From assembly GCA_963823665.1 (NCBI GenBank), contig CAWGMQ010000003.1:480001-544000 (forward strand): 64,000 nt of DNA, given 5' to 3'. Below are positions 39,138-55,357 of this stretch, one piece after another. Made by a program: the position numbers and the translations under genes. Numbering within the stretch: position 1 is the first letter of the stretch; every line of letters begins with the position of its first letter. The notes beneath the pieces are model-generated. The model was given only the letters and a program-made list of their open reading frames with translations. It was not told the origin of the DNA and did not search any database. This stretch comes from an uncultured Planctomycetota bacterium. Lineage in GTDB: Bacteria; Planctomycetota; Planctomycetia; Isosphaerales; Isosphaeraceae.

Positions 39138-40113
39138 ATGGAGATCGAAACAATCGCCGCCTTCCCCGAGCCGCGGCCGGTGCGGCCCCGGCTGTACGGC
39201 CGATCCGCTATCTGGACCAGCGGCATCACCGCAGTCCTGGCTTTTTCCGCGGGTCTGGCCGAGACGACGACCTGTGTCGCATTCGACCCGCAGGCACCCG
39301 GCCCGGCAGCGACCGCCAAGGGGACACTCGCAACCAAGGCAGACAAAGCAGACCAGTCCAGGTCGAAGGCGACGGTTTCCTTCGAGATGCTGGTGACCAA
39401 TCACATGCTGGTTGACGCAAAGATTAATGGTAAGGGTCCGTTTCGCTTGATTTTCGACCTGGGTGCACCGGTGACTTTGCTGAGTAACCGAGCAAGCGAG
39501 GCTGCGGGAGTCGTCAAGCCCGATGCGCCGAAGTCGTTCTTGTTTGGAATGAGAGGAGAAGCCGAGGTCAACCGGCTGCAAGTTGGTGATCTGACGGCAG
39601 ATAAGTTGCCGGTCATCGTCCTGGACCACCCTGTGCTCTCGGCGCTCGAGGACGTGACGGGACGGAAGATCGACGGAATCATGGGCTTTACATTTTTCGC
39701 CCGCTTCAAGACCACCATCGACTACCACGCTCGGGAGATGAGCTTCGAGCCCATTACCTATCAGGTCCGCAACCTGCTCAAGGAGCTTCCAGACCGGTTG
39801 ATGGGTCCCAAGGTGGCCCAGCGGCGGGTGGTGGCGCCATCGGGACTGTGGGGGCTTCGTCTGGGTGAACAAGCCAAGGGTGTCCAATCCCAGGGTGCTG
39901 CCGATTCTGAAGGTCCTGGAAGGCTCCCCTGCGGGCCAGGCCGGGCTCAAGGCCGGTGACATCCTCACAACGATCGACGGGCGCTGGGTCACGTCCGTCG
40001 CGGATGCCTATCACGCCGCCGCGAAAGTTCCTCCTGGCCAGCAGGTCACGATCGTGATTGTGCGGGACGGCAAGGAACTTTCGCTCTCGATCAAACCAGC
40101 GAACGGAATATGA
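39138..40113 (+). CDS. Second retropepsin-like/PDZ protein (frameshift near 39895)
   Basis: NHMLVDAKINGKGPFRLIFDLGAP, IDGIMGFTFFARF; PDZ VLEGSPAGQAGLKAGDILTTIDG. Confidence 0.82.
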
Positions 40114-41250
40114 GCGATTCAACCACAGCGCTCTCAGGCTCCGCAAGGAGCGTGCTCGTTATCGGCGCGGGTGTCAGCGGGCTCACAAGCGCTCTTTGCC
40201 TGCTGCGAAGAGGCTTCGCGGTGACGGTGCTCGCGGATTCGTTCGCGCCGCGCGTAACCTCGGTTGTTGCCGGGGCCTTGTGGGAATGGCCTCCGGCCGT
40301 GTGCGGCTACCATCGCGACATCTTGTCGCTGGCGCGCTCGAAGGCGTGGTGCCGCTCATCACTTCAGATGTTCAGCGAGCTCTCGCTTCGACCAGCCGGA
40401 GACCGGCGTCTTCGTCAGACCCGTCTCCTATTACTTCAAGCGGCCGATCGAAGAGGATCCCTTCCATCTGGCGAAGATGGAAGACCTCAAGGACGAAGTT
40501 GCCGGTTTCCGGCATGATCGGGCGCTGATCGCGGAACACAGGGTCAACCCGGACCTGGGTCTGCAGGACGCGTACACTCATCTGGCTCCCATGGTCGACA
40601 CCGACACCTATATGCAATGGCTGTTTCGTGAGACTCGCAACGAAGGCTGCCGGGTCGTCGAAGGCAGGGTCAAGGGACTGCTTTCCGCCCAGGTACAGGC
40701 CCTGGCGGGGGAATTCAGGGCGGAGGCCATCGTCAACTGCGCCGGCCTGGGGTCCAGGGAACTCACCGCAGACTCGATGTATCCCCTTCGAGGTGCACTC
40801 GTGCGGGTGAAGAACGATGGGCGGGCCATGTCCCGGATCACCGACGCACATTGCATCTCACTGGACCACACTGGTCCGGAGCAGTCGTTCGTTTTCATCG
40901 TGCCGCGCGGCGAGGACATGCTGGTCCTCGGTGGCCTGGCAGAGCCGGACGAGTGGGACCTCGAGATTGGCCTGCATAATTACGATCCGGTCCGCCAGAT
41001 GTACCGGCGCTGCGTGCAGTTCATGCCGCGGCTGGCGAACGCCGAGATCGATGCTGCGGAGCCGGTTCGCGTCGGACTAAGGCCAATGCGCAACCCGGGC
41101 GTTCGCCTGGAAGCAGAGCCGCGGGCCCGCATCGTCCACAATTACGGACACGGCGGCTCGGGAGTGACGTTTTCGTGGGGCTGTGCTCTCGAGGTCGTCG
41201 ACCTGGTCGAACGCATGATCTGCTCCGAGGCGGCTGCCGGTCGCGCATGA
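40110..41250 (+). CDS. FAD-dependent D-amino-acid oxidase family protein (frameshift near 40386)
   Basis: VIGAGVSGLTSA, TSVVAGA, IVNCAGLG, VGLRP, IVHNYGHGGSGVTFSWGCA. Confidence 0.88.
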
Positions 41251-42931: not shown

Positions 42932-43849
42932 TTGCGCCATGGGAACTGCACCCGCCCATCAGTTCCACCGCAACATATACTAAACGGTTGTCCCCCATCG
43001 GGGAAATTATCACAATTGGGCTCGAGCGACAAGGGCCAAGGCCCCTCGCTCATGGGTGATTCGCAAACGATGGGTTATGGCGTCAGTGATGGCGCACAGT
43101 ATCCGAGCTTGATTGGCAAGACGCTCGAGGCACGCTTTGGACCGGACCGGTTTACAATGATCAACACGACGTTGGCCGGTATGGGGAACGGCCGGTGGAT
43201 CAAATTGTTGCGAGGGGGCGTTTGGGGGTTTCAGCCCCGGCTGGTGATCCTGCAACTCTCCAACACTGACTTTGGCGACAATGAACGGGAAGGGCTTTTC
43301 AAGCTGTCCCCTTCGGGTGAGCTGGTCGAGCTGCCCTTGCAGCCCGCTCCGATGATGCTCCAACTCGATCGGCTCGTCGACGCGATTCCTGGCCTGTCCT
43401 ATTCCTACACGATTGGGCTGTGCAAGCAGGTGGTCGCCCAGGTGATCTCCCAGCACGCCCGGACGATCGCTGCTGCCGGATCATTCAATCCGCCAGGGAG
43501 TCACCCACTGACCTACAAACTCGTCGAGGAGTCGATCGCGATGTGTCGGCGTGAGGGCTGGCCGGTGCGGTTGCTCGCGACCGATCATGAGCGAGAAGCC
43601 CTGGCGGAGATCGAGCAGTTTTGCAGCCGGCTCCATGTTCCGCTGGTTGCGGTGCCAACCAGACGCATGCGTCCGGACCTGTTTTATGCGATCGACCCTC
43701 ACTGGAACGTGGCGGGGCAACGCTATGTGGCGGACTTGATCGAAGCGCGGCTCGCAGCCGAAGGAATTCTGCTCGGCTCGCCGGAGCAGAAGAGTGAAGG
43801 CGGACGCCAGACGACCGCTGCGCTCAACTGCCGCGGCGACGCTCGATGA
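42932..43849 (+). CDS. SGNH/GDSL hydrolase family protein, 5' end probably truncated
   Basis: MGDSQTMGYGV (block I), SNTDFGDN, IDPHWN (block V); the N-terminal ~40 aa look non-native. Confidence 0.65.
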   Translation: MRHGNCTRPSVPPQHILNGCPPSGKLSQLGSSDKGQGPSLMGDSQTMGYGVSDGAQYPSLIGKTLEARFGPDRFTMINTTLAGMGNGRWIKLLRGGVWGFQPRLVILQLSNTDFGDNEREGLFKLSPSGELVELPLQPAPMMLQLDRLVDAIPGLSYSYTIGLCKQVVAQVISQHARTIAAAGSFNPPGSHPLTYKLVEESIAMCRREGWPVRLLATDHEREALAEIEQFCSRLHVPLVAVPTRRMRPDLFYAIDPHWNVAGQRYVADLIEARLAAEGILLGSPEQKSEGGRQTTAALNCRGDAR

Positions 43850-43989
43850 GTGATCGATGGAAAACGCAGGGGTTGACAGGTGGGATCGGCCGTGTTGAAG
43901 AGCATCGCTTCAGTAACAGAACGGCCGGGTGTTGGAGATCAAGACGGGGTAACGGAAGAAGGCTGCGGGTTGCGCGGGGGAACGCGTCC

Positions 43990-44751
43990 ATGACGACAGT
44001 CCTGGGAATCTCGGCACTCTATCACGACAGCGCCGCTGCTCTGACCGTTGACGGTGAAGTCGTCGCGGCCGCGCAGGAGGAGCGGTTCAGCCGTGAGAAG
44101 TACGACCCGCGGTTTCCAGCGCAGGCAGTCCGCTATTGCCTGGATGAAGCCGCGATCGGTCCCGAGCAACTCGATTATGTCGCCCTTTATGAACAACCCC
44201 TGACCAAGTTCGAGCGGCTGTTCGAGACCTACGTGTCCTACGCCCCGGACGGGTTCGCCAGCTTCCGGCAGGCCATTCCCGTCTGGCTGCGCCAGAAGCT
44301 GCACATTCCACGCGAAATTCGCCGCGGGCTGGAGGAACGGTACCGCGGCCAGATCTTCTTTCCCAGCCATCACGAAAGCCATGCCGCCAGCGCCTTCTTT
44401 CCCTCGCCGTTCGACGAGGCCGCCATCATCACCATGGACGCCGTCGGCGAGCGGTCCACTTCCGCCATCGGATTCGGCCGCGGCAACCACCTCGACTTGC
44501 TTCAGGAAATCCGCTTTCCCCACTTCCTCGGCATGTTCTACAGCGCCTTCACTTACTACTGTGGCTTCAAGGTCAACAGCGCCGAGTACAAGCTGATGGG
44601 CCTGGCACCCTACGGCGAGCCCAGGTTCGTCGACCTGATCAAGCAGAACCTGATCGATGTCAAGGACGACGGCAGCTATCGTCATCGGCCGCCGCCGGCC
44701 GGAGGGACAGAACGCGACATGATCACGTCCGGGCGAGCTCGCCAAACCTGA
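43990..44751 (+). pseudogene. NodU/CmcH O-carbamoyltransferase, N-terminal part only
   Basis: LGISALYHDSAAAL, AAQEERFSR.K, HHESHAASAFFPSPF, YKLMGLAPYG. Similarity stops at DGSYR (about 44680) and no C-terminal domain follows. Confidence 0.85.
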
Positions 44752-45011: not shown

Positions 45012-46461
45012 TCAAGGTTGGCCGGCGGCGGTGTATTTCCAGCCCGGGCCGCCGCCAAAGACACGGTTCGTGCCGGCCAGCGGCAAGCCAGTGATGAGCG
45101 AGGCTTCGAGCGAGAGCGCCCGAAGATCTTCGGGCTCGAGGTGGTGCACGTCGCTCTTGCCGCAGGCGCGGGCCAGAATCTGGATTTCCGAGGTCAAGGC
45201 GTGGAAGAAGTTGGCGACGCGCTCGGAGGCAGCCTCGACTTCCAGCCTTACGGCAAGCTCGGGATCTTGAGTCGTGATGCCGACCGGGCAGCGTCCGGTG
45301 TGACAGTGGTGGCACGAGTAGGGGGCAGCGCCGATCTTGTGGTAGTCTTCGATGAAGATCGGTTTGTTGCAGTTGAGCGCAATCAGGAGCGCCGTGCCCA
45401 GGTAGCAGGCGTCGGCGCCCAAGGCAAGCGCCTTGGCGCAATCGGAGCCGTGCCTGAGCCCGCCGGCGATCACGAGCTGCACCTTGCCGTAAAGGCCGAT
45501 GTCCTCGAGGGCGGCGCGTGCCTCACAGACCGCTGCGAGTGTCGGGATTCCGGTGTGTTCCTGCAGAAGCTCCGGCGAAGCTCCGGTGCCTCCTTCCATG
45601 CCGTCGACGACGATCACGTCGGCGCCTGCCTTCGCCGCAAGCCGGACGTCGTCGAAGACGCGCGACGCACCCATCTTGACGAAGATTGGTACTTCATGAC
45701 CGGTGGCCTCGCGCAGCTCTTCGATCTTCCAGATCAGGTCATCCGGACCGAGGAAATCAGGATGCCGGCACGGGGAACGTTGATCGACACCCGGGGGGAG
45801 ATCGCGGAGCCCGGCGATTTCCGCGGAAACTTTCGAGCCCAGAAGCAGACCCCCGGTGCCGGGTTTGGCTCCCTGGCCGATCGTGAGCTCGATCGCATCA
45901 GCCTGGCGAAGGTGCTGGATGTTGATGCCGTAGCGGCTGGGCAGGACCTCGTAGATCAGAACCCGCGACTCGGTGCGCTCGAGATCGAGCATTCCACCGT
46001 CGCCGGTGGTCGAAGACGTGCCGGCCATCCGCGCCCCGCGTGCGAGTGCCTGCTTCGCCTGCCGCGAAAGGGCCCCGTAGCTCATGCCGGTGACCATGAG
46101 CGGGATGTCGAGCTCGAGCGGCCTGGTGGCGAATCGCGTGCCCAGGACGGTGCGTGAGGAACACGCCTCGCGGTAGCCTTCCAGCGGAATGCGGGTGAGC
46201 GTGCCGGGCAGGAACGTGAGATCGTCGAAGGTGGCCCAGGTTCGCTCGCGGAGCGCGCCGAAGCCGCGGATGCGGTACCTTGCGCAGCTCGGCTTTGATC
46301 TGGATGTCCTCGATCACCGCGGGGCTGAACGTCGCCGAGGTGGCCGCGGGGGACGGATCGCCACCGATCCGGCGAGCGGTGTCCGTCGCGCCGAAGAATG
46401 GGGTACGCGGCTGCGAGGCCTGCGGCTGCCCGGCTCGGTCAAACGACTCGCCCGGGTCCAT
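45012..46461 (-). CDS. glxD: FMN-binding glutamate synthase family subunit, GlxD/MgsC (frameshift near 46280)
   Basis: YRIRGFG, FDDLTFL...RIPLEGYRE, GMSYGALS, TTGDGGM, GQGAKPGTGG, SPCRHPD, DGMEGGTGA, CHHCHTGRCPVGITTQ. Confidence 0.9.
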
Positions 46462-46477
46462 GAGTCCCCTCCCTCTC

Positions 46478-47377
46478 TCAGATCATGAACTCAGGAGCGA
46501 CCGGTTCCGAGCTTGCCGCCGATCCATTGGCGCCGGCGGAGGGAAGCCCGCGGGCAGTGCTCGATTCGCACTCGCGAAGGTATTGCTTCGCGGGCTCGGC
46601 GAAGTCGGAATGGTTGGTCAGCTTGAGCACTCGCTGAAAATCGGCGGCGGCCTCGCGCACGAGCCCCTTCCTGAGCAAACAGATGCCGCGGTTCAAGTGC
46701 GTGTCGGGGTCGTTTGCCCGCAGGGTCATCAGCATGCCGAAGTCGGCGAGGGCCGAGTCGAAGTCGCCGCTCTCGAGGCAAATCTTGCCGCGCTGCGTAT
46801 AAGCGGCGGTGAACCGCGAATCGCGCTCGATCGCCCGCTCGAAGTCGGCAAGCGCGAGCGTTTTCTCGCCCATTGTCTGATAGAGAGCGCCCCTGCGGAA
46901 ATAACCTTCCGCCAGATTGGGCGACGTCTTGATCGCCTGGTTGTACTCGCGCAGCGCGGCCGCATATTTCTTCTGGGCATGATGCCGCCGGCCCGCCCGG
47001 AGCCGGCTCGGCACGAGCTCACGGAGCCGGCGCCTGGTCGAAACTAGCACGGACGACATCACGACCGCAGCGACTGCCGGCAACGTCACCAGCCCGAGCA
47101 GCAGCGACAGACGCGACCGTTCGCTTTGACGGTACGTTGTGACCGCGATGTGTGCACTGCTCCGCACCGTGACGGTTTGCTCGCGAACTGTCCACATGAA
47201 AGCCACGATGGCCACGACGGCGAGGAGCCCGAAGGCCCGGGCCGTTTTCCTGAGCTTGCCGAGGCTCAGGCAGGCGACGGCAATCACCAGCAAGAGAGCG
47301 GCTACGCCCAGTGCCGCGAGCAGCGCCGTACGGCTCGGCCAATTGATGATACGATCATAATAATCAGCGAACGTCAT
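46478..47377 (-). CDS. Membrane-anchored TPR protein
   Basis: Three hydrophobic segments followed by TPRs (YFRRGALY...ALADFERAI; AYTQRG...ALADF; HLNRG...AAADF). Confidence 0.85.
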   Translation of the reverse strand: MTFADYYDRIINWPSRTALLAALGVAALLLVIAVACLSLGKLRKTARAFGLLAVVAIVAFMWTVREQTVTVRSSAHIAVTTYRQSERSRLSLLLGLVTLPAVAAVVMSSVLVSTRRRLRELVPSRLRAGRRHHAQKKYAAALREYNQAIKTSPNLAEGYFRRGALYQTMGEKTLALADFERAIERDSRFTAAYTQRGKICLESGDFDSALADFGMLMTLRANDPDTHLNRGICLLRKGLVREAAADFQRVLKLTNHSDFAEPAKQYLRECESSTARGLPSAGANGSAASSEPVAPEFMI

Positions 47378-47651
47378 TTTAGGAGAGCTCTCACCGCCGC
47401 CGTCCCCGTTGTCATCGTCGCGGGAGCACGCTTCGCTCTGCGAACACTAGAAGATTTTGACGATCAGTTCCCTGAACCCGCCTGGGGCCAGTTGTTGCGG
47501 CCGACGGATTGTTGATCAAAAGTCTGCAGGAAGGGTTTCGCCACCAGGATGAGTGCAGCCAGGCGCCGTTCACTCTACGGGGCGCGATGCGCGGTGTCAA
47601 TTGCGTCGAGCGGCGGCCCCACCAATTTTTCCCACTGGAGCTCCCACGCGA

Positions 47652-48380
47652 TCACAAGGCGGCTTTCCACAGTGCTCGCTCGCTCCGCTCGAAGTTCCAG
47701 AGCCTCCTGCCGGAAACCACCTTTTGAAAGCCCCCCGGCGGGGCAGTCACCTTGTAGCGCTCGAGCGAGGTCGCGATCAGCTCGAGGTCGGCGTCGGAAA
47801 CCTCTTCGTAAACCGCGTCGGCGCCGAGCTCGCTACAACTGCCGCCGAGAAAAACGGTGCCGGCATACATGCTGTCGGCGAGCCCGGCACCGGCGTCACC
47901 ACACACGACCAGCACGCCCTTCTGCATCATGAATCCGGCCATCGGGCCCACGCTGCCGGCCACAATGAGCATCCCGCCTTTCATCGCGATGCCGGCGCGA
48001 GTCGACGCATCGCCCCTGACCACAACCGTTCCAGCACGTATCGAGGCGGAGACGGCGTTGCCAGCGTTTCCGTCGATTACCACAGTGCCGTCACGCATGC
48101 TCTCAGCGGCACCCCACCCTGCTCCGCCGTGGACGAATAATGTGGCGCCGTCGTTCAAGCCCGCGACGTAGTAGCCGACGCTCCCCTCGATCGTGAGCTC
48201 GATGCCCTCCGGCAGGCCGACGCCCAGGTTGTGCCGGCCGCCGGGCCGAAGCAGGCGAATCGTCCTGTAACCCGAGGCGATCGCAGATCGAATCGCCTCG
48301 TTGATTGCGCGGACAGGTCCTTCGCCGCAGTCGACGACCTCCGCGTTCCCGTTCGACGGCAGCGACGCACTCGAGGTCAT
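47652..48380 (-). CDS. glxC: GXGXG-domain protein, GlxC/MgsB
   Basis: HNLGVGL, IEGSVGYY.AG, GDASTRAGIAMKG, GFMMQKG.LVVCGDAG..LADSMY, SGRRLWNF. Confidence 0.9.
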   Translation of the reverse strand: MTSSASLPSNGNAEVVDCGEGPVRAINEAIRSAIASGYRTIRLLRPGGRHNLGVGLPEGIELTIEGSVGYYVAGLNDGATLFVHGGAGWGAAESMRDGTVVIDGNAGNAVSASIRAGTVVVRGDASTRAGIAMKGGMLIVAGSVGPMAGFMMQKGVLVVCGDAGAGLADSMYAGTVFLGGSCSELGADAVYEEVSDADLELIATSLERYKVTAPPGGFQKVVSGRRLWNFERSERALWKAAL

Positions 48381-49312
48381 GCAGTCCTCAACGGATAGAA
48401 CAGTACCGAGCCTGGGGGCGGCTCGACCGCGATGTAATCCCCCGGTAATGCCCGCCGCAGCGCAATCTCTTCGGTTGCCACCGCGACGAAATCGTCTGTC
48501 TCCGCCAGCATGAGCGGTTTGAATCCGTAGCGGTCGCGCACGACCCCCAGGCCCTCGGTCGAAGCGACCAGGTAGTTGAATGCTCCGTCCAGGTCGGCAA
48601 CGGAATCGGCGAGCGCGCCCTCCAGGCTGCGCCCCTCTCCCATCCGATCGCGGAGGTAAACGCCGATCACCTCGGAATCATTGTCGGTGTAGAAGATCAC
48701 GCCCTGCTGCTCGTAGCGCCGGCGAAGCTGATGGAAATTTGTGACGTGGCCGTTGTGGACGGTGGCCAGGTCGGGGACTCCATGCACCCAGAACGGCTGG
48801 GAGTGGCTCAAGTCAATGCGGCTTTCGGTGGATAATCGAGTGTGGCCGATGGCCAGCGGGCCGGTCCAGGCGGCGATCGAATAAGCCGCCTCGAGCTGCG
48901 ACGGCGAGCCGACCTGCTTGACCAGATCGAGCCTGTGGCCGAGACTCAGGATTTCCAGTCCGCCGCGGCAGGCACCGAGTGCCTGTTCGAGAACGGTCGG
49001 CGTTACGCCGGGGTTGGGAACGAAGCGAGCGCGCAGCGAGGAGCCGGTTCGCTCGCGACGGGAACCGACCGGGAGCGGGACCAGCCGGCCCAGGTGCGCC
49101 AGCCGTTCAAACGGCGGCTCGTCCCGACCGGCAAAGCGAATGAACCAGGCACCGTCCAATCCCGAGTCGGCGTCGGGCTCCCTTCCGATCATCGCCAGCC
49201 CGGCGCCATCGGGCCCCCGGCAGGCCAGTGCCTCGAGCATCGTGAGCATGATGCGCCCGCTGGAGGCCGACAACCGCCCCGACTTGTCCCGGAACCCGAC
49301 GATTCCACACAT
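48377..49312 (-). CDS. glxB: Class II (Ntn) glutamine amidotransferase, GlxB/MgsA
   Basis: MCGIVG start, RGPDGAG, IGHTRLSTES, VHNG, TDNDSEV, RDRYGFKP. Its stop overlaps the glxC start. Confidence 0.9.
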   Translation of the reverse strand: MCGIVGFRDKSGRLSASSGRIMLTMLEALACRGPDGAGLAMIGREPDADSGLDGAWFIRFAGRDEPPFERLAHLGRLVPLPVGSRRERTGSSLRARFVPNPGVTPTVLEQALGACRGGLEILSLGHRLDLVKQVGSPSQLEAAYSIAAWTGPLAIGHTRLSTESRIDLSHSQPFWVHGVPDLATVHNGHVTNFHQLRRRYEQQGVIFYTDNDSEVIGVYLRDRMGEGRSLEGALADSVADLDGAFNYLVASTEGLGVVRDRYGFKPLMLAETDDFVAVATEEIALRRALPGDYIAVEPPPGSVLFYPLRTA

Positions 49313-49444
49313 GGCCCACTCTGGTAAGTTGAAAATCGGCCGGCCGCACGCCAATTCTACTGGCCCTGGCGGCGGCTGTCGCCAACAATCGTGTTTCGAA
49401 TGCATCGGCCGCTCGTCGCAGCAGAAGAAAGGACCTCACCCGGC

Positions 49445-50815
49445 ATGGCCCACCTCGAGGCGGAGCTAACCAGGCTCGAACACCGAATGCAGGACGACGC
49501 AATCGCCTTCCTGCTGATCCAGTTCGTTGACATCCACGGGTCGGCCAAGGTCAAGCTCGTGCCGGCGAGCACGCTGAAATCTGTGGCCGCATCCGGCGCC
49601 GGATTCGCAGGCGGCGCCCTGTGGGGCATGGGCCAAGGACCTCACTCACACGATCTATTCGCCCGGCCTGATCTGAGCTCGTATACCCCTCTGCCCTATG
49701 AGCCGGGCGTCGCACGGTTTGCCTCCGATCTCCATGTCGACGACCAGCCCCACCCTTACTGCCCGCGGGTCGCGCTCAAGCGGGTGCTCGAAGAGGCGCG
49801 GCGACGGGGCTACGTCTTCAACGCCGGCATCGAGCCCGAGTTCTTCCTGGTCGTCAAGAACCCGGACGGCTCGATTCAAGGCTGGGATCCGTACAACGTC
49901 GATGATCTGGCCAAACCCTGTTACGACTTCAAGGGAATCTGTGGCGCGCTCGACTTTCTGCGTGCGCTCGGAGAGGGACTCGATCGGCTCGGGTGGGGCG
50001 TCTACCAGAGCGATCATGAAGACGCCAATTATCAATACGAGGTGAACTTCCAGTACGCCGACGCACTGACGACGGCCGACCGCTTCACCTTCTTCCGCAT
50101 GATGACCGGGCAGCTTGCACGCCGCTTCGGCGCGATTGCGACCTTCATGGCCAAGCCCTTCTCGACCCGCACGGGCTCGGGTGCTCATATGCATTACCAT
50201 CTCGCCGATGCCGGCGGCGGGGGCAATCTCTTTCTCGATGCGGCAGACCCGCGCAGGCTCGGTCTCTCAAGGACCGCGTATCAATTCATCGCGGGCATAC
50301 TCGAGCATGCGCCAGCGCTTTGTGCGGTCACGTCGCCGACGGTGAATTGCTACAAGCGGCTGCAGATGGGCCCCGCGCTTACCGGGTCGCGTTCGGGATA
50401 CACGTGGACGCCGGCGTTCATCACTTACGGCGACAACAACCGAACGCAGATGCTCCGGGTGCCGGATGGGGGCCACATCGAGGACCGGTCGATTTCGAGC
50501 GCGTTCAATCCGTATCTCGGAATCGCGGCGTACGTGGCCGCCGGTTTGGATGGGATTTCCCGCGGGCTTGACCCCGGTGAGCCGAACCTGGGGAATCTCT
50601 ATACCGCGGATATCGAGACGATGGCGAGCCGCGGCGTGCGGACATTGCCGCAGAGCCTCGCCGAGGCGATCGGTTTTCTCGAGCGAGATCAGGTCGTTCG
50701 CGAAAGCTTGGGGCCGATTGCAGACGAATTCCTGCGGCTCAAGCGCGACGAGTGGCGTGAGTATCATGCGCAAGTGGAAACCTGGGAGATCAAGCGATAC
50801 TTATCGGTGCTTTGA
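49445..50815 (+). CDS. glnT: GlnT-type glutamate-amine ligase, putative gamma-glutamylmethylamide synthetase (GmaS)
   Basis: FVDIHG..KVKLVP, GAGFAG, GIEPEFFL, KPCYD, YQSDHEDAN.QYE.N, TFMAKPF...TGSGAHMH, YGDNNRT.M.R.P. Divergent from glxBC. Confidence 0.88.
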   Translation: MAHLEAELTRLEHRMQDDAIAFLLIQFVDIHGSAKVKLVPASTLKSVAASGAGFAGGALWGMGQGPHSHDLFARPDLSSYTPLPYEPGVARFASDLHVDDQPHPYCPRVALKRVLEEARRRGYVFNAGIEPEFFLVVKNPDGSIQGWDPYNVDDLAKPCYDFKGICGALDFLRALGEGLDRLGWGVYQSDHEDANYQYEVNFQYADALTTADRFTFFRMMTGQLARRFGAIATFMAKPFSTRTGSGAHMHYHLADAGGGGNLFLDAADPRRLGLSRTAYQFIAGILEHAPALCAVTSPTVNCYKRLQMGPALTGSRSGYTWTPAFITYGDNNRTQMLRVPDGGHIEDRSISSAFNPYLGIAAYVAAGLDGISRGLDPGEPNLGNLYTADIETMASRGVRTLPQSLAEAIGFLERDQVVRESLGPIADEFLRLKRDEWREYHAQVETWEIKRYLSVL

Positions 50816-50840
50816 GGGCGCGAGATCGAAAGGCGAATTG

Positions 50841-52046
50841 ATGGACGTCTACCACGAGAAGAATGTGATCGTCGGTGCCGGCGCAATGGGATCGGCCGCG
50901 GCCTATCATCTCGCGCGGCGCGGCGAGCCGGTACTGCTGATCGAACAGTTTTCGCTCGGTCACGACCGGGGAAGCTCGCACGGGGCGGCCCGGATCACAC
51001 GGCACTCCTACGCCGACGCGGCGTACGCCCGGCTCATGCCCGCGGCATTCCGCGCCTGGCGAGAGCTTGAGGCCTCCTCCGGCGAAACCCTCTTTTTCCG
51101 GACCGGCGGCGTGTCGTTCTCACCGCCGGGCGTCGATTACGTCGCGAAGGTCGCAGCCAACCTGAATGAACTGGGAATTCCCCACTGGCGGTCGTCGGGG
51201 AAAGACTGGAACGCACGTTGCAGAGCCTACACCCTGCCCGGCGATTACGACGTCGTGTTCGAGCCCGATGCCGGCATGCTAGCCGCGGCGCGGGCTGTCT
51301 CGCTCATGGTCGAGCTGGCCCGCTGCATGGGCGGCGCGGCAACCCGCGTTCTGGAGCAAACTCCGGTTCGACAGATCGATCTCGATGGCGATCACCCGGT
51401 CGTCGTGACCGACGCGTCGCGGATCATCGCCGATCGACTCATCGTCTCGGCCGGCGCCTGGGTGAAGCGGCTTCTACCCGGATTTTCTGTGCCGCTTCGC
51501 GCGACACGCCAGCAAGTGCTCTACGTCACGCCCGATGACCCGGCACCGTTCCGGATCGGGTCGTTTCCTGTTTTTATTTTCAAGGGCGCAAGCGATCTCG
51601 ACGCTTTCTACGGGATGCCCCCGTTCCTGAATCCCGGAGTCAAAACGGCTCGGCATGGCGGCCCGGAAGTCGACCCCGAGAACGTCGATCCCACGCCGTC
51701 CGAAGAGGCCATCGCCAGCGTCCGCCGCTTTCTGGGCGATCACATCCCGGCGCTCGAAGACGCTCGAATCAGCCAGACCGAAGTGTGTCTTTATACGCTC
51801 GCGCCCAACGATCAATTCCAGGTCGACTTCATGCCGGGACGCGACGACATGCTCATCGCCAGCCCTTGCAGCGGACATGGATTCAAATTCTCATGCTTGG
51901 TCGGACACGCATTGGCAGACCTTGCCACTTCTGGCGTAACCGAGCTCGACATCGACGCGTGGCGAATCGATCCGACCGACACCCCGCAGCGTTCCGAATA
52001 TCGCTCGCAGCAACATCCGGCCGCCACCGGGAAACCTGACGGATGA
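50841..52046 (+). CDS. solA: Monomeric sarcosine oxidase / N-methyl-L-tryptophan oxidase family flavoprotein
   Basis: IVGAGAMG, HDRGSSHG..RITRHSY, SAGAW, EVCLYT (flavin-linking Cys position), SGHGFKF. Confidence 0.88.
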   Translation: MDVYHEKNVIVGAGAMGSAAAYHLARRGEPVLLIEQFSLGHDRGSSHGAARITRHSYADAAYARLMPAAFRAWRELEASSGETLFFRTGGVSFSPPGVDYVAKVAANLNELGIPHWRSSGKDWNARCRAYTLPGDYDVVFEPDAGMLAAARAVSLMVELARCMGGAATRVLEQTPVRQIDLDGDHPVVVTDASRIIADRLIVSAGAWVKRLLPGFSVPLRATRQQVLYVTPDDPAPFRIGSFPVFIFKGASDLDAFYGMPPFLNPGVKTARHGGPEVDPENVDPTPSEEAIASVRRFLGDHIPALEDARISQTEVCLYTLAPNDQFQVDFMPGRDDMLIASPCSGHGFKFSCLVGHALADLATSGVTELDIDAWRIDPTDTPQRSEYRSQQHPAATGKPDG

Positions 52047-53352: not shown

Positions 53353-55357
53353 ATGACCAATCGGATCGATCTGCAACCTGTATCGATTCAATCGCGCCAG
53401 CGCCGGTGGTGGCGGGCCTCGCGGTGGGTTTCCGCGTCGCGACATCGCACGGTTCGCAGGCGGATCGCCCTGCTGGCCCTGATCGCGGTACCCGCGATCG
53501 TGGCGCTCGCCGTCGCACTGCGCCGGTTGCGCGAAGCTCCCAGGATCGAGCCGGCTTTTGAATCGATTGCGCACCAGCGGGCGGGTCCGATCAGCGATTT
53601 CGCCCTGCGGGACGCCAGTGGCGAACTCCGCACCGCGCACGAGTGGTCCGCGCATCGGGCGATCGTTCTGCTCTTTTGCAAGCTCGACCACCCCGGATCG
53701 GCCCAGGCCGCACGTGCGACCGCGAAACTTGCCGCCCTGTTCAAGCCACGCGGCATCTTGTTTCTGGCGGTATGCTGTGAGACCTCCGCTCTCGGGGAGA
53801 CAACGCGGGCGCTCGCAGCGGCAACAGGCTCTGAATTACCGATCGTCTTCGACCCGGAGCAGACCGTCGCGCGGCAGGCGGGCGTCCGTGCCCTTCCCGA
53901 AGCCGTGGTGCTCGCGCCGGACGGGCAGGTTATGTACCGCGGCGCAGTGATTCAAGCAGCGGACGCCCCGCGCAGCCGCAAGACGGCGGATGCACGATAC
54001 GACCTGGAATCGGCAATTCGATCGATTGACCGCGACGACCTCCCCGTGGTCTTCTCGACCCCCGAGGCGGCGGGAAGTCCGCTGCCCGCGCTTCCATCGC
54101 CTGAGGAGCCAGGCCCCTCTTCCGAGCCGCCGGTCGTGTTCACTCGGGATGTCGCGCCCATTCTGTGGAAGCACTGCGCATGCTGTCACCGCAGGGGAGA
54201 AGTCGGTCCGTTTCCGCTTGTGACTTACCAGGACGCCGCCAAACGCGCGAGTTTCCTGTGCGAGGTAGTCGAGGACCGAACGTATGCCGCCGTGGAAGCC
54301 CCACCCCGCGGCCGGCGTTTTTCTCGACGCGCCCCGGCTCTCCGTGATCGAGAAGGAGACGCTCGAGCGCTGGACATCGAGCGGATGTTTGCGCGGCGAT
54401 CCGCGCGACCTTCCCCCGCAACCGGAGTGGAGCGACGGCTGGCGGCTGGGTGAGCCCGACCTGGTTCTTTCCGCGCCGGAGCAGTTCGAAGTTCCGGCCG
54501 ACGGGCCGGACATTTACCAGACTCTCCCGTTGCGAGTGCCGGCCGATCGCGACCTGATCATCGCCGGACTCGAGTTTCGTCCCGGCAACCGCCGGGTCGT
54601 GCATCACAGCCGCATTCATCTGGATGTCACCGGTGCAGCGCGCCGGAACGCCGAGCAACATCGGGGCGCGGGCACGCGAATCATCGGCGTGGGTGGAGTC
54701 GACGCGCGCTCGATCGAACTGCCCTATCCGGGGCTCGGCGCCTGGACGCCGGGAATCACTCCGCGGCTGGCGCCGGAGGGGGTGGGCCGGTTGATCCCGC
54801 GGGGGTCGGACGTCGTGGTGCAGATTCACTACCATCCGACGGGAAGACCGGAACGAGATCAGTCCCGAGTGGCGCTCTTCCTCGCGAAAAAGCCGGTGAC
54901 GAAAACCATGGCCGGCTATTCGCTCTGCACGGACCAGATCGACATTCCCGCCGGTGCGAAGCGGCACAAGATCATTCTGAGCACGCGGCTGAAGGCCAAC
55001 GTTCATCTCTATTCCGCCGTGCCGCACGCCCACAACCTGTGCCGGGAGTTCCGCCTGGCTGCGACTCTGCCTGACGGAACGGTTCAACCACTCCTGTGGA
55101 TCACGGACTGGAGCCTCGACTGGCAAGACCAGTACACGTTCTTGAAGCCGGTGCGGCTGCCCGAGGGAACGGTGCTCACGCTGGCCGCTTACTACGATAA
55201 TTCCGCAGAGAACTCGCGCAACCCGAACCGGCCACCGAAGCGCATGCGGTACGGTGTCGAGACCAAGGACGAAATGTGCGCCTGCCACCTCGAGTTCCTC
55301 CCGGACGACACACGCGGATATGAGGCGTATCAGGCGCGGTCACCGTTTGGATTGTGA
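53353..55357 (+). CDS. Redoxin-fold + c-type cytochrome + Cu type II monooxygenase-like protein (frameshift near 54281)
   Basis: DFALRD, PEAVVL...YRG; VFTRDVAPIL..HCACCH (CxxCH)...GPFPL; MPPW, LGEPDL, VVHH, PHAH, W..DWQ..Y, DEMC. Confidence 0.85.

Follow-up and report, generated by a model that had tools for sequence, protein, structure and literature searches.

A monomeric flavin oxidase as the candidate last enzyme of a variant N-methylglutamate pathway in the planctomycete family Isosphaeraceae

The gene arrangement described here, found in a 64,000-nucleotide stretch of DNA (the window) from a planctomycete of the family Isosphaeraceae, probably encodes a variant of the nitrogen-scavenging N-methylglutamate (NMG) pathway with a different last enzyme. 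Genes for gamma-glutamylmethylamide synthetase (GmaS) and the three subunits of N-methylglutamate synthase (MgsABC) are clustered with solA, which encodes a monomeric flavin oxidase and occupies the place where the mgd genes come after gmaS in relatives (locus L109). With a probability of roughly 0.6, SolA oxidizes NMG to glutamate, formaldehyde, and H2O2. This reading had already been proposed in the initial annotation, and it is favored by the lack of an mgd/sox operon in the genome, the linkage of solA to the cluster across the family, and a lysine (Lys248) in the predicted substrate pocket, with the qualifications that SolA is not a pathway-specific paralog and did not simply replace MgdABCD.

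In the proposed pathway, GmaS would join methylamine and glutamate, after which MgsABC would form NMG (the subunit domains are present, and the reaction is taken from characterized homologs). The single-chain flavoprotein SolA would then oxidize the N-methyl group with O2, releasing glutamate, free formaldehyde, and H2O2. Here, the alpha-carboxylate would be bound by Arg54 and Lys349, as happens in monomeric sarcosine oxidase (MSOX), and the gamma-carboxylate by Lys248, which reverses the charge at the side-chain pocket's rim. The formaldehyde may be passed on to Fae and an H4MPT pathway whose genes lie outside the cluster, as was suggested earlier; genome searches recovered fae, mch, and an mtd-type domain, the link being one of co-presence. 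NMG is probably not the only substrate of SolA. The gene would be an old one in the family that stays after pathway loss, whereupon Lys248 often drifts to Met or another neutral residue.

Table 1. Features of the cluster, with positions in the window
Feature	Position	Strand	Evidence
mgsC/glxD, FMN-binding subunit of N-methylglutamate synthase	45012..46461	-	PF01645 (Glu_synthase) E 4.7e-98; 86-94% identity to relatives; two frames
TPR protein, hydrophobic N-terminus	46478..47377	-	TPR family matches
mgsB/glxC, GXGXG subunit	47652..48380	-	PF01493; TIGR03122 below cut-off
mgsA/glxB, class II glutamine amidotransferase (GATase_6) subunit, starts Met-Cys	48377..49312	-	PF13522/PF13537
Divergent intergenic region, 132 bp	49313..49444	.	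exact gap between mgs side and gmaS
gmaS, gamma-glutamylmethylamide synthetase (GlnT-type ligase)	49445..50815	+	TIGR03105 554.7 bits, cut-off 469.6
solA, monomeric MSOX/MTOX-family flavin oxidase, candidate N-methylglutamate oxidase	50841..52046	+	NF008425 306.8 bits, cut-off 257
SolA Lys248 codon (= MSOX Glu247, TrSOX Asp246), proposed side-chain-carboxylate partner	51582..51584	+	alignments; pathway co-retention
SolA Cys316 codon, covalent-FAD cysteine by alignment (MSOX Cys315, TrSOX Cys312)	51786..51788	+	alignments

Profile matches and coordinates reproduce the six genes, their order, and their strands as first annotated, and the two spacings given for the divergent gap and for gmaS to solA (25 bp) are both exact. 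The start of glxD had been placed wrongly at 46097, as the gene spans the whole interval in Table 1 and carries one extra base. Sequence and alignment to relatives set the start of mgsA at 49312. The three clustered Mgs subunits comprise a class II amidotransferase, a GXGXG protein, and an FMN-binding glutamate-synthase domain. A promoter and terminator scan was uninformative: in the divergent region it gave a single weak match of sigma-70 type, located on the minus strand, and four sites against 1.4 expected are not evidence of function. The TPR gene occurs in 17 of 27 gmaS loci fetched and was rejected as a pathway component, since it also lies upstream of solA in 17/63 loci that lack the pathway; it is regarded as a passenger.

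Both family and residue tests identify the ligase as GmaS, with a preference for methylamine predicted. The protein is nearer to solved GmaS structures (9QUR, 439 bits; 7CQL, 355 bits) than to glutamine synthetase (GS, 224 bits). In the alignment to 7CQL, it keeps the catalytic residues Asp177, Glu186, and Arg312, while Trp replaces the Glu flap and Ala replaces Asp50' of GS; these diagnostic residues were taken from PMC7948447.

Targeted searches, on which all genome-wide statements here rest, detected no mgdA/soxB, soxD, or full-length alpha subunit and no mgd/sox operon in the source genome (G000, 92% complete), and MttB was likewise not found; the alpha-subunit query gave a full-length match in 4/4 positive-control genomes, whereas the SoxD search had no positive control. 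As defined by the presence of mgdABCD, the canonical NMG pathway was thus not recovered in this genome. Among 121 Isosphaeraceae genomes, mgsC is present in 37 and an mgdA-like gene in only three, leaving 34/37 pathway carriers without an mgdA match; an mgdA-like gene is also lacking in the near-closed carriers G098, G107, G108, and G111 (99-100% complete, two to seven contigs). The gene solA lies within the gmaS cluster in 32 of the 37 carriers and is unlinked or was not found in the other five; with this frequency, the arrangement is not due to chance. Among 80 metagenome gmaS loci, 42 have sox/mgd subunits and 13 have solA behind gmaS, one of these 13 having both. A search for an mgd/sox operon and for solA-gmaS linkage across genomes had both been proposed as checks: the absence of the former from this genome and the conservation of the latter both favor the earlier reading. 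A genome scan with the single SolA protein as query returned just one locus. A 696-aa GmaS-SolA "fusion" (P0109) proved to be a frameshift artifact, its linker being out of frame.

SolA belongs to the MSOX/MTOX family. Its predicted model (pLDDT 87.5) has the MSOX fold (TM 0.85-0.87), with 32-33% identity to MSOX of Bacillus (1EL5/2GB0) and to TrSOX of Thermomicrobium (7EXS), and its single chain contains the covalent-FAD Cys and the carboxylate-binding Arg, Tyr, and Lys. The equivalents of MSOX Arg49, Arg52, Tyr55, Tyr254, Lys265, His269, Cys315, Tyr317, and Lys348 are all kept. In contrast to MSOX and TrSOX, Met245 is replaced by Ile (Ile246), Phe100 by Tyr (Tyr100), and Glu247/Asp246 by Lys; the Met245/Phe100 pocket of MSOX is thus lacking, the score against the strict sarcosine oxidase model (TIGR01377) is 264.8 against a cut-off of 479.65, and the surroundings of solA showed no genes for creatinine or sarcosine. 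The protein does exceed the strict N-methyltryptophan oxidase (MTOX) cut-off of NF008425. Compared with E. coli MTOX (2UZZ), however, it shows 28% identity and a TM of 0.83 and falls into a separate clade; the E. coli enzyme has Glu at the Lys248 position, and its Thr239, which favors N-methyl-Trp according to the available excerpts of PMC12582975, corresponds to Ile246 here, so that the open pocket of that type is missing. PF01266 is the sole domain match of SolA, unlike the heterotetrameric MgdABCD with its folate-binding alpha subunit.

Lys248 sits, by alignment, on a pocket strand where the solved MSOXs are acidic; MSOX, TrSOX, E. coli MTOX, and 20/21 other planctomycete SolAs all have an acidic residue here. 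The counts cover 99 of 101 orthologs (G007 and G104 left out; one of the 99 is unreadable at site 248), with five distant-clade SolAs, the E. coli protein, and duplicates excluded. The lysine is kept in all 32 readable genomes with the pathway and without mgd, in 0/3 genomes with mgd (G062 has Met), and in only 36 of the 63 examined genomes without the pathway. Since the three mgd-bearing genomes form one clade, their loss of the lysine counts as one event. Independent pairs associate Lys248 with the pathway by 5.9 to 0.0, with a median p of 0.031 in the sign test; this ranks first among 127 sites of similar variability. Under late-change parsimony, none of 18 Lys248 changes falls on branches that keep the pathway (p 3e-4, first among 373 sites), and under early-change parsimony 2/18 do (p 0.008, rank 5), all for a residue chosen after about 36 pocket positions had been viewed. 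These patterns support a link of SolA to the pathway through this one residue, for which contact with the ligand is predicted. Arg71, which lies outside the known pocket positions, likewise follows the pathway across the tree (1/22 changes) but is kept in the mgd-bearing genomes. Arg271 was considered as a second carboxylate ligand and rejected, as it is kept whether or not the pathway is present and E. coli MTOX has Lys in its place.

Native TrSOX is weak on N-methyl-L-Asp (kcat/Km 12.6 vs 1003 for sarcosine), and removal of Glu251, a neighboring residue, raised kcat/Km for N-methyl-L-Asp 11-fold (PMC8892156). D-aspartate oxidase differs from D-amino acid oxidase in that a basic residue of the side-chain pocket, Arg216, binds the side-chain carboxylate and selects the acidic substrate (PMC8260693). 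It belongs to another subfamily than SolA, deaminates D-amino acids, and is cited here as a precedent.

SolA might instead be a general, sarcosine-type oxidase of N-methyl amino acids that has its place in the methylated-amine neighborhood but serves another step, for example the clearing of sarcosine or of side products such as N-methylglutamine, with NMG handled by an unlinked and unrecognized enzyme; we consider this unlikely, though it is the strongest competitor. In its favor, solA is a near-core, single-copy gene of Isosphaeraceae, retained as an ortholog in 65/84 genomes without the pathway and present as a single copy in 151 of 241 Planctomycetia genomes outside the family, and is thus not a pathway-specific paralog; the source genome also holds five further DAO-family flavoproteins. 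Moreover, solA stands between gmaS and mgdA in three Isosphaeraceae genomes and one of another family (G743, order gmaS-solA-mgdA). Of these, G062 has an intact mgdABCD directly after solA (called mgd rather than sox by context and a score below the TIGR01373 cut-off), while G045 and G046 have interrupted mgd copies. With both in one cluster in four genomes, solA did not simply replace mgd. Excerpts of PMC13236597 further report that N-methylglutamine builds up with NMG in marine bacteria. N-methylglutamine, however, has no side-chain charge, a general oxidase would leave the restriction of Lys248 to mgd-lacking genomes unexplained, and the 27 loci read show no other demethylase candidate linked to the cluster.

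Alternatively, the linkage may reflect inherited history, namely that mgs-gmaS was placed once, in an ancestor, next to a solA already there and was then passed down and lost many times, with GMA or NMG being what the cluster ultimately makes (for detoxification or as a solute) and no demethylase being needed. The flanks, hisG and dnaB, are the same with and without the cluster, and the 32 linked cases therefore represent one origin; solAs linked to the cluster are intermixed on the tree with unlinked ones, with 12 changes, at least seven of them forced (19 frameshifted or short rows left out). This explanation is nevertheless improbable, distinctly more so than a general oxidase, because the distribution of the lysine implies pathway-linked selection, by our own stoichiometric reasoning no net nitrogen is gained from NMG synthesis alone, and unrelated SolAs lie directly behind gmaS in the planctomycete family f5 and in Verrucomicrobia (in the latter by consecutive NCBI accessions). 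An AU test rejects a single clade of f5-linked and Isosphaeraceae SolAs (p 0.0019; group named after the tree was seen). In the f5 genus g442, solA is present in 7/7 genomes (unlinked in three) and mgdA in 0/7; across f5, solA was not found in six of nine mgdA carriers, while in G834 and G822, which have gmaS, neither solA nor mgdA was found. The gmaS-linked SolAs of both groups have Asp at the Lys248 position. An Arg in all 11 f5-linked SolAs was considered and rejected, as TrSOX, which is poor on N-methyl-Asp, also has it.

Taking SolA as the NMG oxidase, one may go further and propose an NMG-specific enzyme resting on Lys248, together with a last pathway step that is an interchangeable module, filled by MgdABCD, by a monomeric oxidase recruited on three or more occasions (Isosphaeraceae, f5, and Chthoniobacterales-type Verrucomicrobia), or by an MttB-family methyltransferase (f42). 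We advance this combined proposal tentatively, at somewhat less than even odds.

The reading frame of mgsC is split by one extra base near 46284-46285, at a motif that nine relatives read through in frame. The extra base is absent from one contig in each of three of the four sequencing runs compared; these contigs are those of relatives (depth 2-3.5, with about 95% identity for the listed one, and none spanning the stretch from end to end), and the run that comes closest to the strain has no coverage at the break. The base is likely an assembly error, although a strain-specific break is conceivable. That mgsC is a pseudogene and the pathway dead in this genome is very improbable despite the extra base, given its absence from related contigs, 86-94% identity of MgsC to intact copies, two other frameshift-split genes in the window (40110-41250 and 53353-55357), and scattered frameshifts in many large-contig relatives.

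The characterized NMG pathways that we read end in the four-subunit MgdABCD. According to excerpts of PMC5023235 and PMC6237917, Methyloversatilis universalis FAM5 and Methylorubrum extorquens DM4 have the same clustered GmaS and three Mgs subunits. Unlike in those strains, mgdABCD was not found here, the mgs genes and gmaS are transcribed divergently, the gene after gmaS encodes a monomeric oxidase, and the predicted C1 product is free formaldehyde with H2O2 instead of methylene-H4F. The oxidative N-demethylation proposed for SolA is that of MgdABCD/SoxBDAG, whose beta subunit has a DAO-type flavin domain like SolA, whereas SolA is a single chain without folate-binding, 2Fe-2S, or delta subunits (compare the G062 operon). 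A literature search by name for an NMG oxidase or this arrangement, with most subscription journals outside its range, found no paper; excerpts of PMC13236597 describe an isolate that, although it has no mgd, processes NMG precursors, and suggest an unknown alternative route.

If SolA is indeed an NMG oxidase, a one-gene enzyme would close the pathway in the Isosphaeraceae carriers without an mgdA match, and it would be handy for NMG measurement. Genome-based calls of methylamine use would change. Under the combined proposal above, many soil bacteria now scored as having an incomplete pathway would use methylamine as a nitrogen source. Finally, the reaction would provide a source of free formaldehyde for the Fae/H4MPT genes of planctomycetes.

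In the source genome G000 (GCA_963823665.1; 16.5 Mb, 12 contigs), the window lies on contig 3. The family is Isosphaeraceae, a label also borne by a SolA with 68% identity. All six genes of the N-methylglutamate (NMG) pathway cluster, mgsABC with a TPR gene divergent from gmaS and solA, were found in the order and at the places given by the initial annotation, and its gaps of 132 bp (divergent) and 25 bp (gmaS-solA) are exact. It had overlooked that mgsC carries one extra base, at a motif that is in frame in nine relatives; the base is absent from one contig apiece in three of four sequencing runs, frameshift splits also occur in two further window genes, and it is read as an assembly error. 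The Redoxin/AhpC-domain gene is kept downstream of solA in many relatives; the GDSL-like protein and carbamoyltransferase pair does not stand beside the cluster in the relatives' loci.

Coordinates of solA and other features (L numbers are fetched loci)
Feature	Location	Remark
solA	window 50841-52046 (+)	
Arg71 codon of solA	window 51051-51053	
mgsC	window 45012-46461	extra base near 46284
D-amino-acid-oxidase-like gene	window 40110-41250	split by frameshift
Redoxin/AhpC-domain protein gene	window 53353-55357	frameshift-split near 54300
GDSL-like protein and carbamoyltransferase genes	window 42932-44751	adjoin cluster; carbamoyltransferase with N-terminal domain only
~200-aa protein between gmaS and solA	L015:10127-10732	
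mgsABC, amino acid permease, gmaS, solA	L215:970-9512	also clustered in L218
MttB-type cluster	L105:2925-4397	
MttB-type cluster	L108:14395-15897	
MttB-type cluster	L243:5398-6825	

The first two pathway steps at this locus are ordinary. The ligase scores 554.7 on TIGR03105 (cut-off 469.6), its closest solved structures are GmaS structures, and it keeps the catalytic Asp177, Glu186, and Arg312 as well as Trp300 and Ala48', which distinguish GmaS from GS (excerpts of PMC7948447); judged by sequence, it is a GmaS. Domain content agrees with expectation for all three Mgs subunits, and the conversion of methylamine to gamma-glutamylmethylamide and NMG is known from characterized systems (excerpts of PMC5023235 and PMC6237917).

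For the demethylating step, targeted searches found no mgdABCD or soxBDAG elsewhere in the 92% complete genome. In G000, soxB/mgdA had no match better than 2e-9, and the alpha-subunit query, which gave full-length matches in 4/4 control genomes, retrieved GcvT-like C-terminal matches, none full-length; SoxD was not found there (in a search without a responding positive control), nor was MttB. Across the 121 compared Isosphaeraceae genomes, mgsC is present in 37, an mgdA-like gene in three, and gmaS in 28 at a strict threshold, with eight more counted by reading frameshifted or cut copies beside solA. Five further DAO-family proteins are encoded in G000, which leaves room for an unlinked demethylating enzyme.

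The linkage of solA to the pathway is conserved, with a same-strand solA after gmaS in 32 of the 37 family carriers (23 directly, nine past inserted genes); in the other five, the contig ends after gmaS (G086, G087) or solA lies elsewhere (G037, G054, G058). Outside the family this place is usually taken by mgd, as in G432 (mgsABC-gmaS-mgdABCD). Among 80 metagenome gmaS loci, 42 contain sox/mgd subunits and 13 have solA behind gmaS, one of the latter having both; 26 loci, many of them short, have neither. In nine genomes, a protein of ~200 aa without a Pfam match lies between gmaS and solA (L015, L016, L017, L019, L023, L027, L031, L064, L088).

The proposal that a SolA paralog completes a variant pathway thus stands as to conserved linkage and absent mgd. 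SolA is not a pathway-only paralog. A cluster-type solA ortholog occurs in 65 of 84 pathway-less family genomes, and a SolA-family gene in 151 of 241 genomes from other Planctomycetia families. Moreover, mgdA directly follows solA in all three mgd-plus family genomes (intact in G062, interrupted in G045 and G046), and the order gmaS-solA-mgdA recurs in G743 of family f5, so that SolA once co-existed with mgd. On the tree, copies linked to gmaS are scattered among unlinked ones, and the two kinds have common flanks, which argues that linkage within the family was one old event followed by many mgs-gmaS losses. The mgd operons of G046 (L113) and G045 (L112) are insertion-broken with duplicated soxB and soxD pieces, and G045 has gmaS and mgsC on different contigs. 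Upstream of solA, several pathway-less genomes have a large malectin/F5-8 domain protein where mgs-gmaS would stand (L042, L047, L048, L049, L051, L052, L056). A few family genomes carry SolA-like proteins of another, distant clade (L092-L096; identity 29-35%), and in genus g52 the cluster-type ortholog occurs only in the gmaS carrier G111.

The predicted SolA model has the MSOX fold (pLDDT 87.5, TM 0.85-0.87), and the covalent-FAD Cys and the carboxylate-binding Arg, Tyr, and Lys (as named in excerpts of PMC12582975) are kept. Two residues after the MSOX pocket residue Met245 comes a site that is acidic in MSOX (Glu247), in TrSOX (Asp246), and in E. coli MTOX, as well as in 20 of the 21 other planctomycete SolAs compared; here it is Lys248. 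Lys248 ends the predicted strand 244-248 and, by strand alternation and the neighboring TrSOX Glu251, would face the substrate pocket. Excerpts of PMC8892156 describe Glu251 as the top of the pocket; there, native TrSOX handles N-methyl-L-Asp ~80-fold less well than sarcosine, and the E251V change raises its performance on N-methyl-L-Asp 11-fold. D-aspartate oxidase offers a precedent for selection of acidic substrates by a basic residue in the pocket (excerpts of PMC8260693).

Surveyed in 99 of 101 solA orthologs, Lys248 is present in 32/32 readable pathway-plus/mgd-minus genomes, 0/3 mgd-plus genomes (a single loss event), and 36/63 pathway-minus genomes. On a tree built without the Lys248 region, independent pairs stood at 5.9 to 0.0 (median p 0.031), which puts Lys248 first among 127 sites of similar variability. 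Pathway-keeping branches carried 0/18 changes under late-change parsimony (p 3e-4, first of 373 sites) and 2/18 under early-change parsimony (p 0.008, rank 5), all p values being uncorrected for the choice of Lys248 among ~36 pocket positions. By this co-retention, Lys248 appears to link SolA with the pathway. Arg71 likewise changed almost exclusively once the pathway had been lost, with 1/22 changes on pathway-keeping branches, and, unlike Lys248, is retained in mgd-plus genomes.

The arrangement recurs in other lineages. In family f5, gmaS is present in 19 of 224 genomes, with an mgdA-like gene in nine, six of which had no detected solA, and solA in 11; its genus g442 has solA in 7/7, mgdA in 0/7, and gmaS-solA adjacency in 4/7 genomes. 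The f5 SolA is a separate lineage from that of Isosphaeraceae (tree; AU p 0.0019), and a third lies behind gmaS in L215 and L218 (proteins labeled Verrucomicrobia, consecutive accessions). These linkages support a functional gmaS-SolA tie; Asp at position 248 in both lineages gives no support for a general role of the lysine. The verrucomicrobial SolA lacks the covalent-FAD Cys (Ala in 55/55 near relatives), and its clade has several specific His residues.

In planctomycete family f42 and one metagenome contig, the cluster of mgsABC and gmaS also includes a gene for an MttB-family methyltransferase (PF06253) and another FMN-binding GlxD-like gene; mgdA was not found in 3/3 genomes with such a cluster. 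Here the pathway may have a third kind of ending, anaerobic and based on a methyltransferase. L105 and L108 also contain an ammonium transporter gene. Planctomycete GlnT-family ligases without mgs genes (L098, L100, L106, L107), whose neighbors are either a hydrolase gene plus a fatty-acid-desaturase-like one or a creatininase-family gene, probably act on other substrates.

Taken as a reading of genomic evidence, SolA as an NMG-demethylating oxidase has a probability of about 0.6. The enzyme would use O2 to oxidize NMG, yielding glutamate along with formaldehyde and H2O2, and the formaldehyde would pass to Fae, Mtd, and Mch. All three are encoded in G000, as the suggested feeding of H4MPT-linked C1 genes needs, but nothing ties them specifically to the cluster, and such genes are already known in planctomycetes (excerpts of PMC5020050). 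A literature search by name found no paper on an NMG oxidase, and no title or abstract on the NMG pathway paired with planctomycetes or solA described such an arrangement; in excerpts of PMC13236597, NMG removal is assigned to MgdABCD, and a single isolate that lacks this enzyme is noted. The single-oxidase ending would be a new version of the known NMG pathway. By stoichiometry, a route without a demethylase yields no net nitrogen gain. Since an oxidase wastes electrons, nitrogen scavenging would fit better than growth on methylamine carbon.
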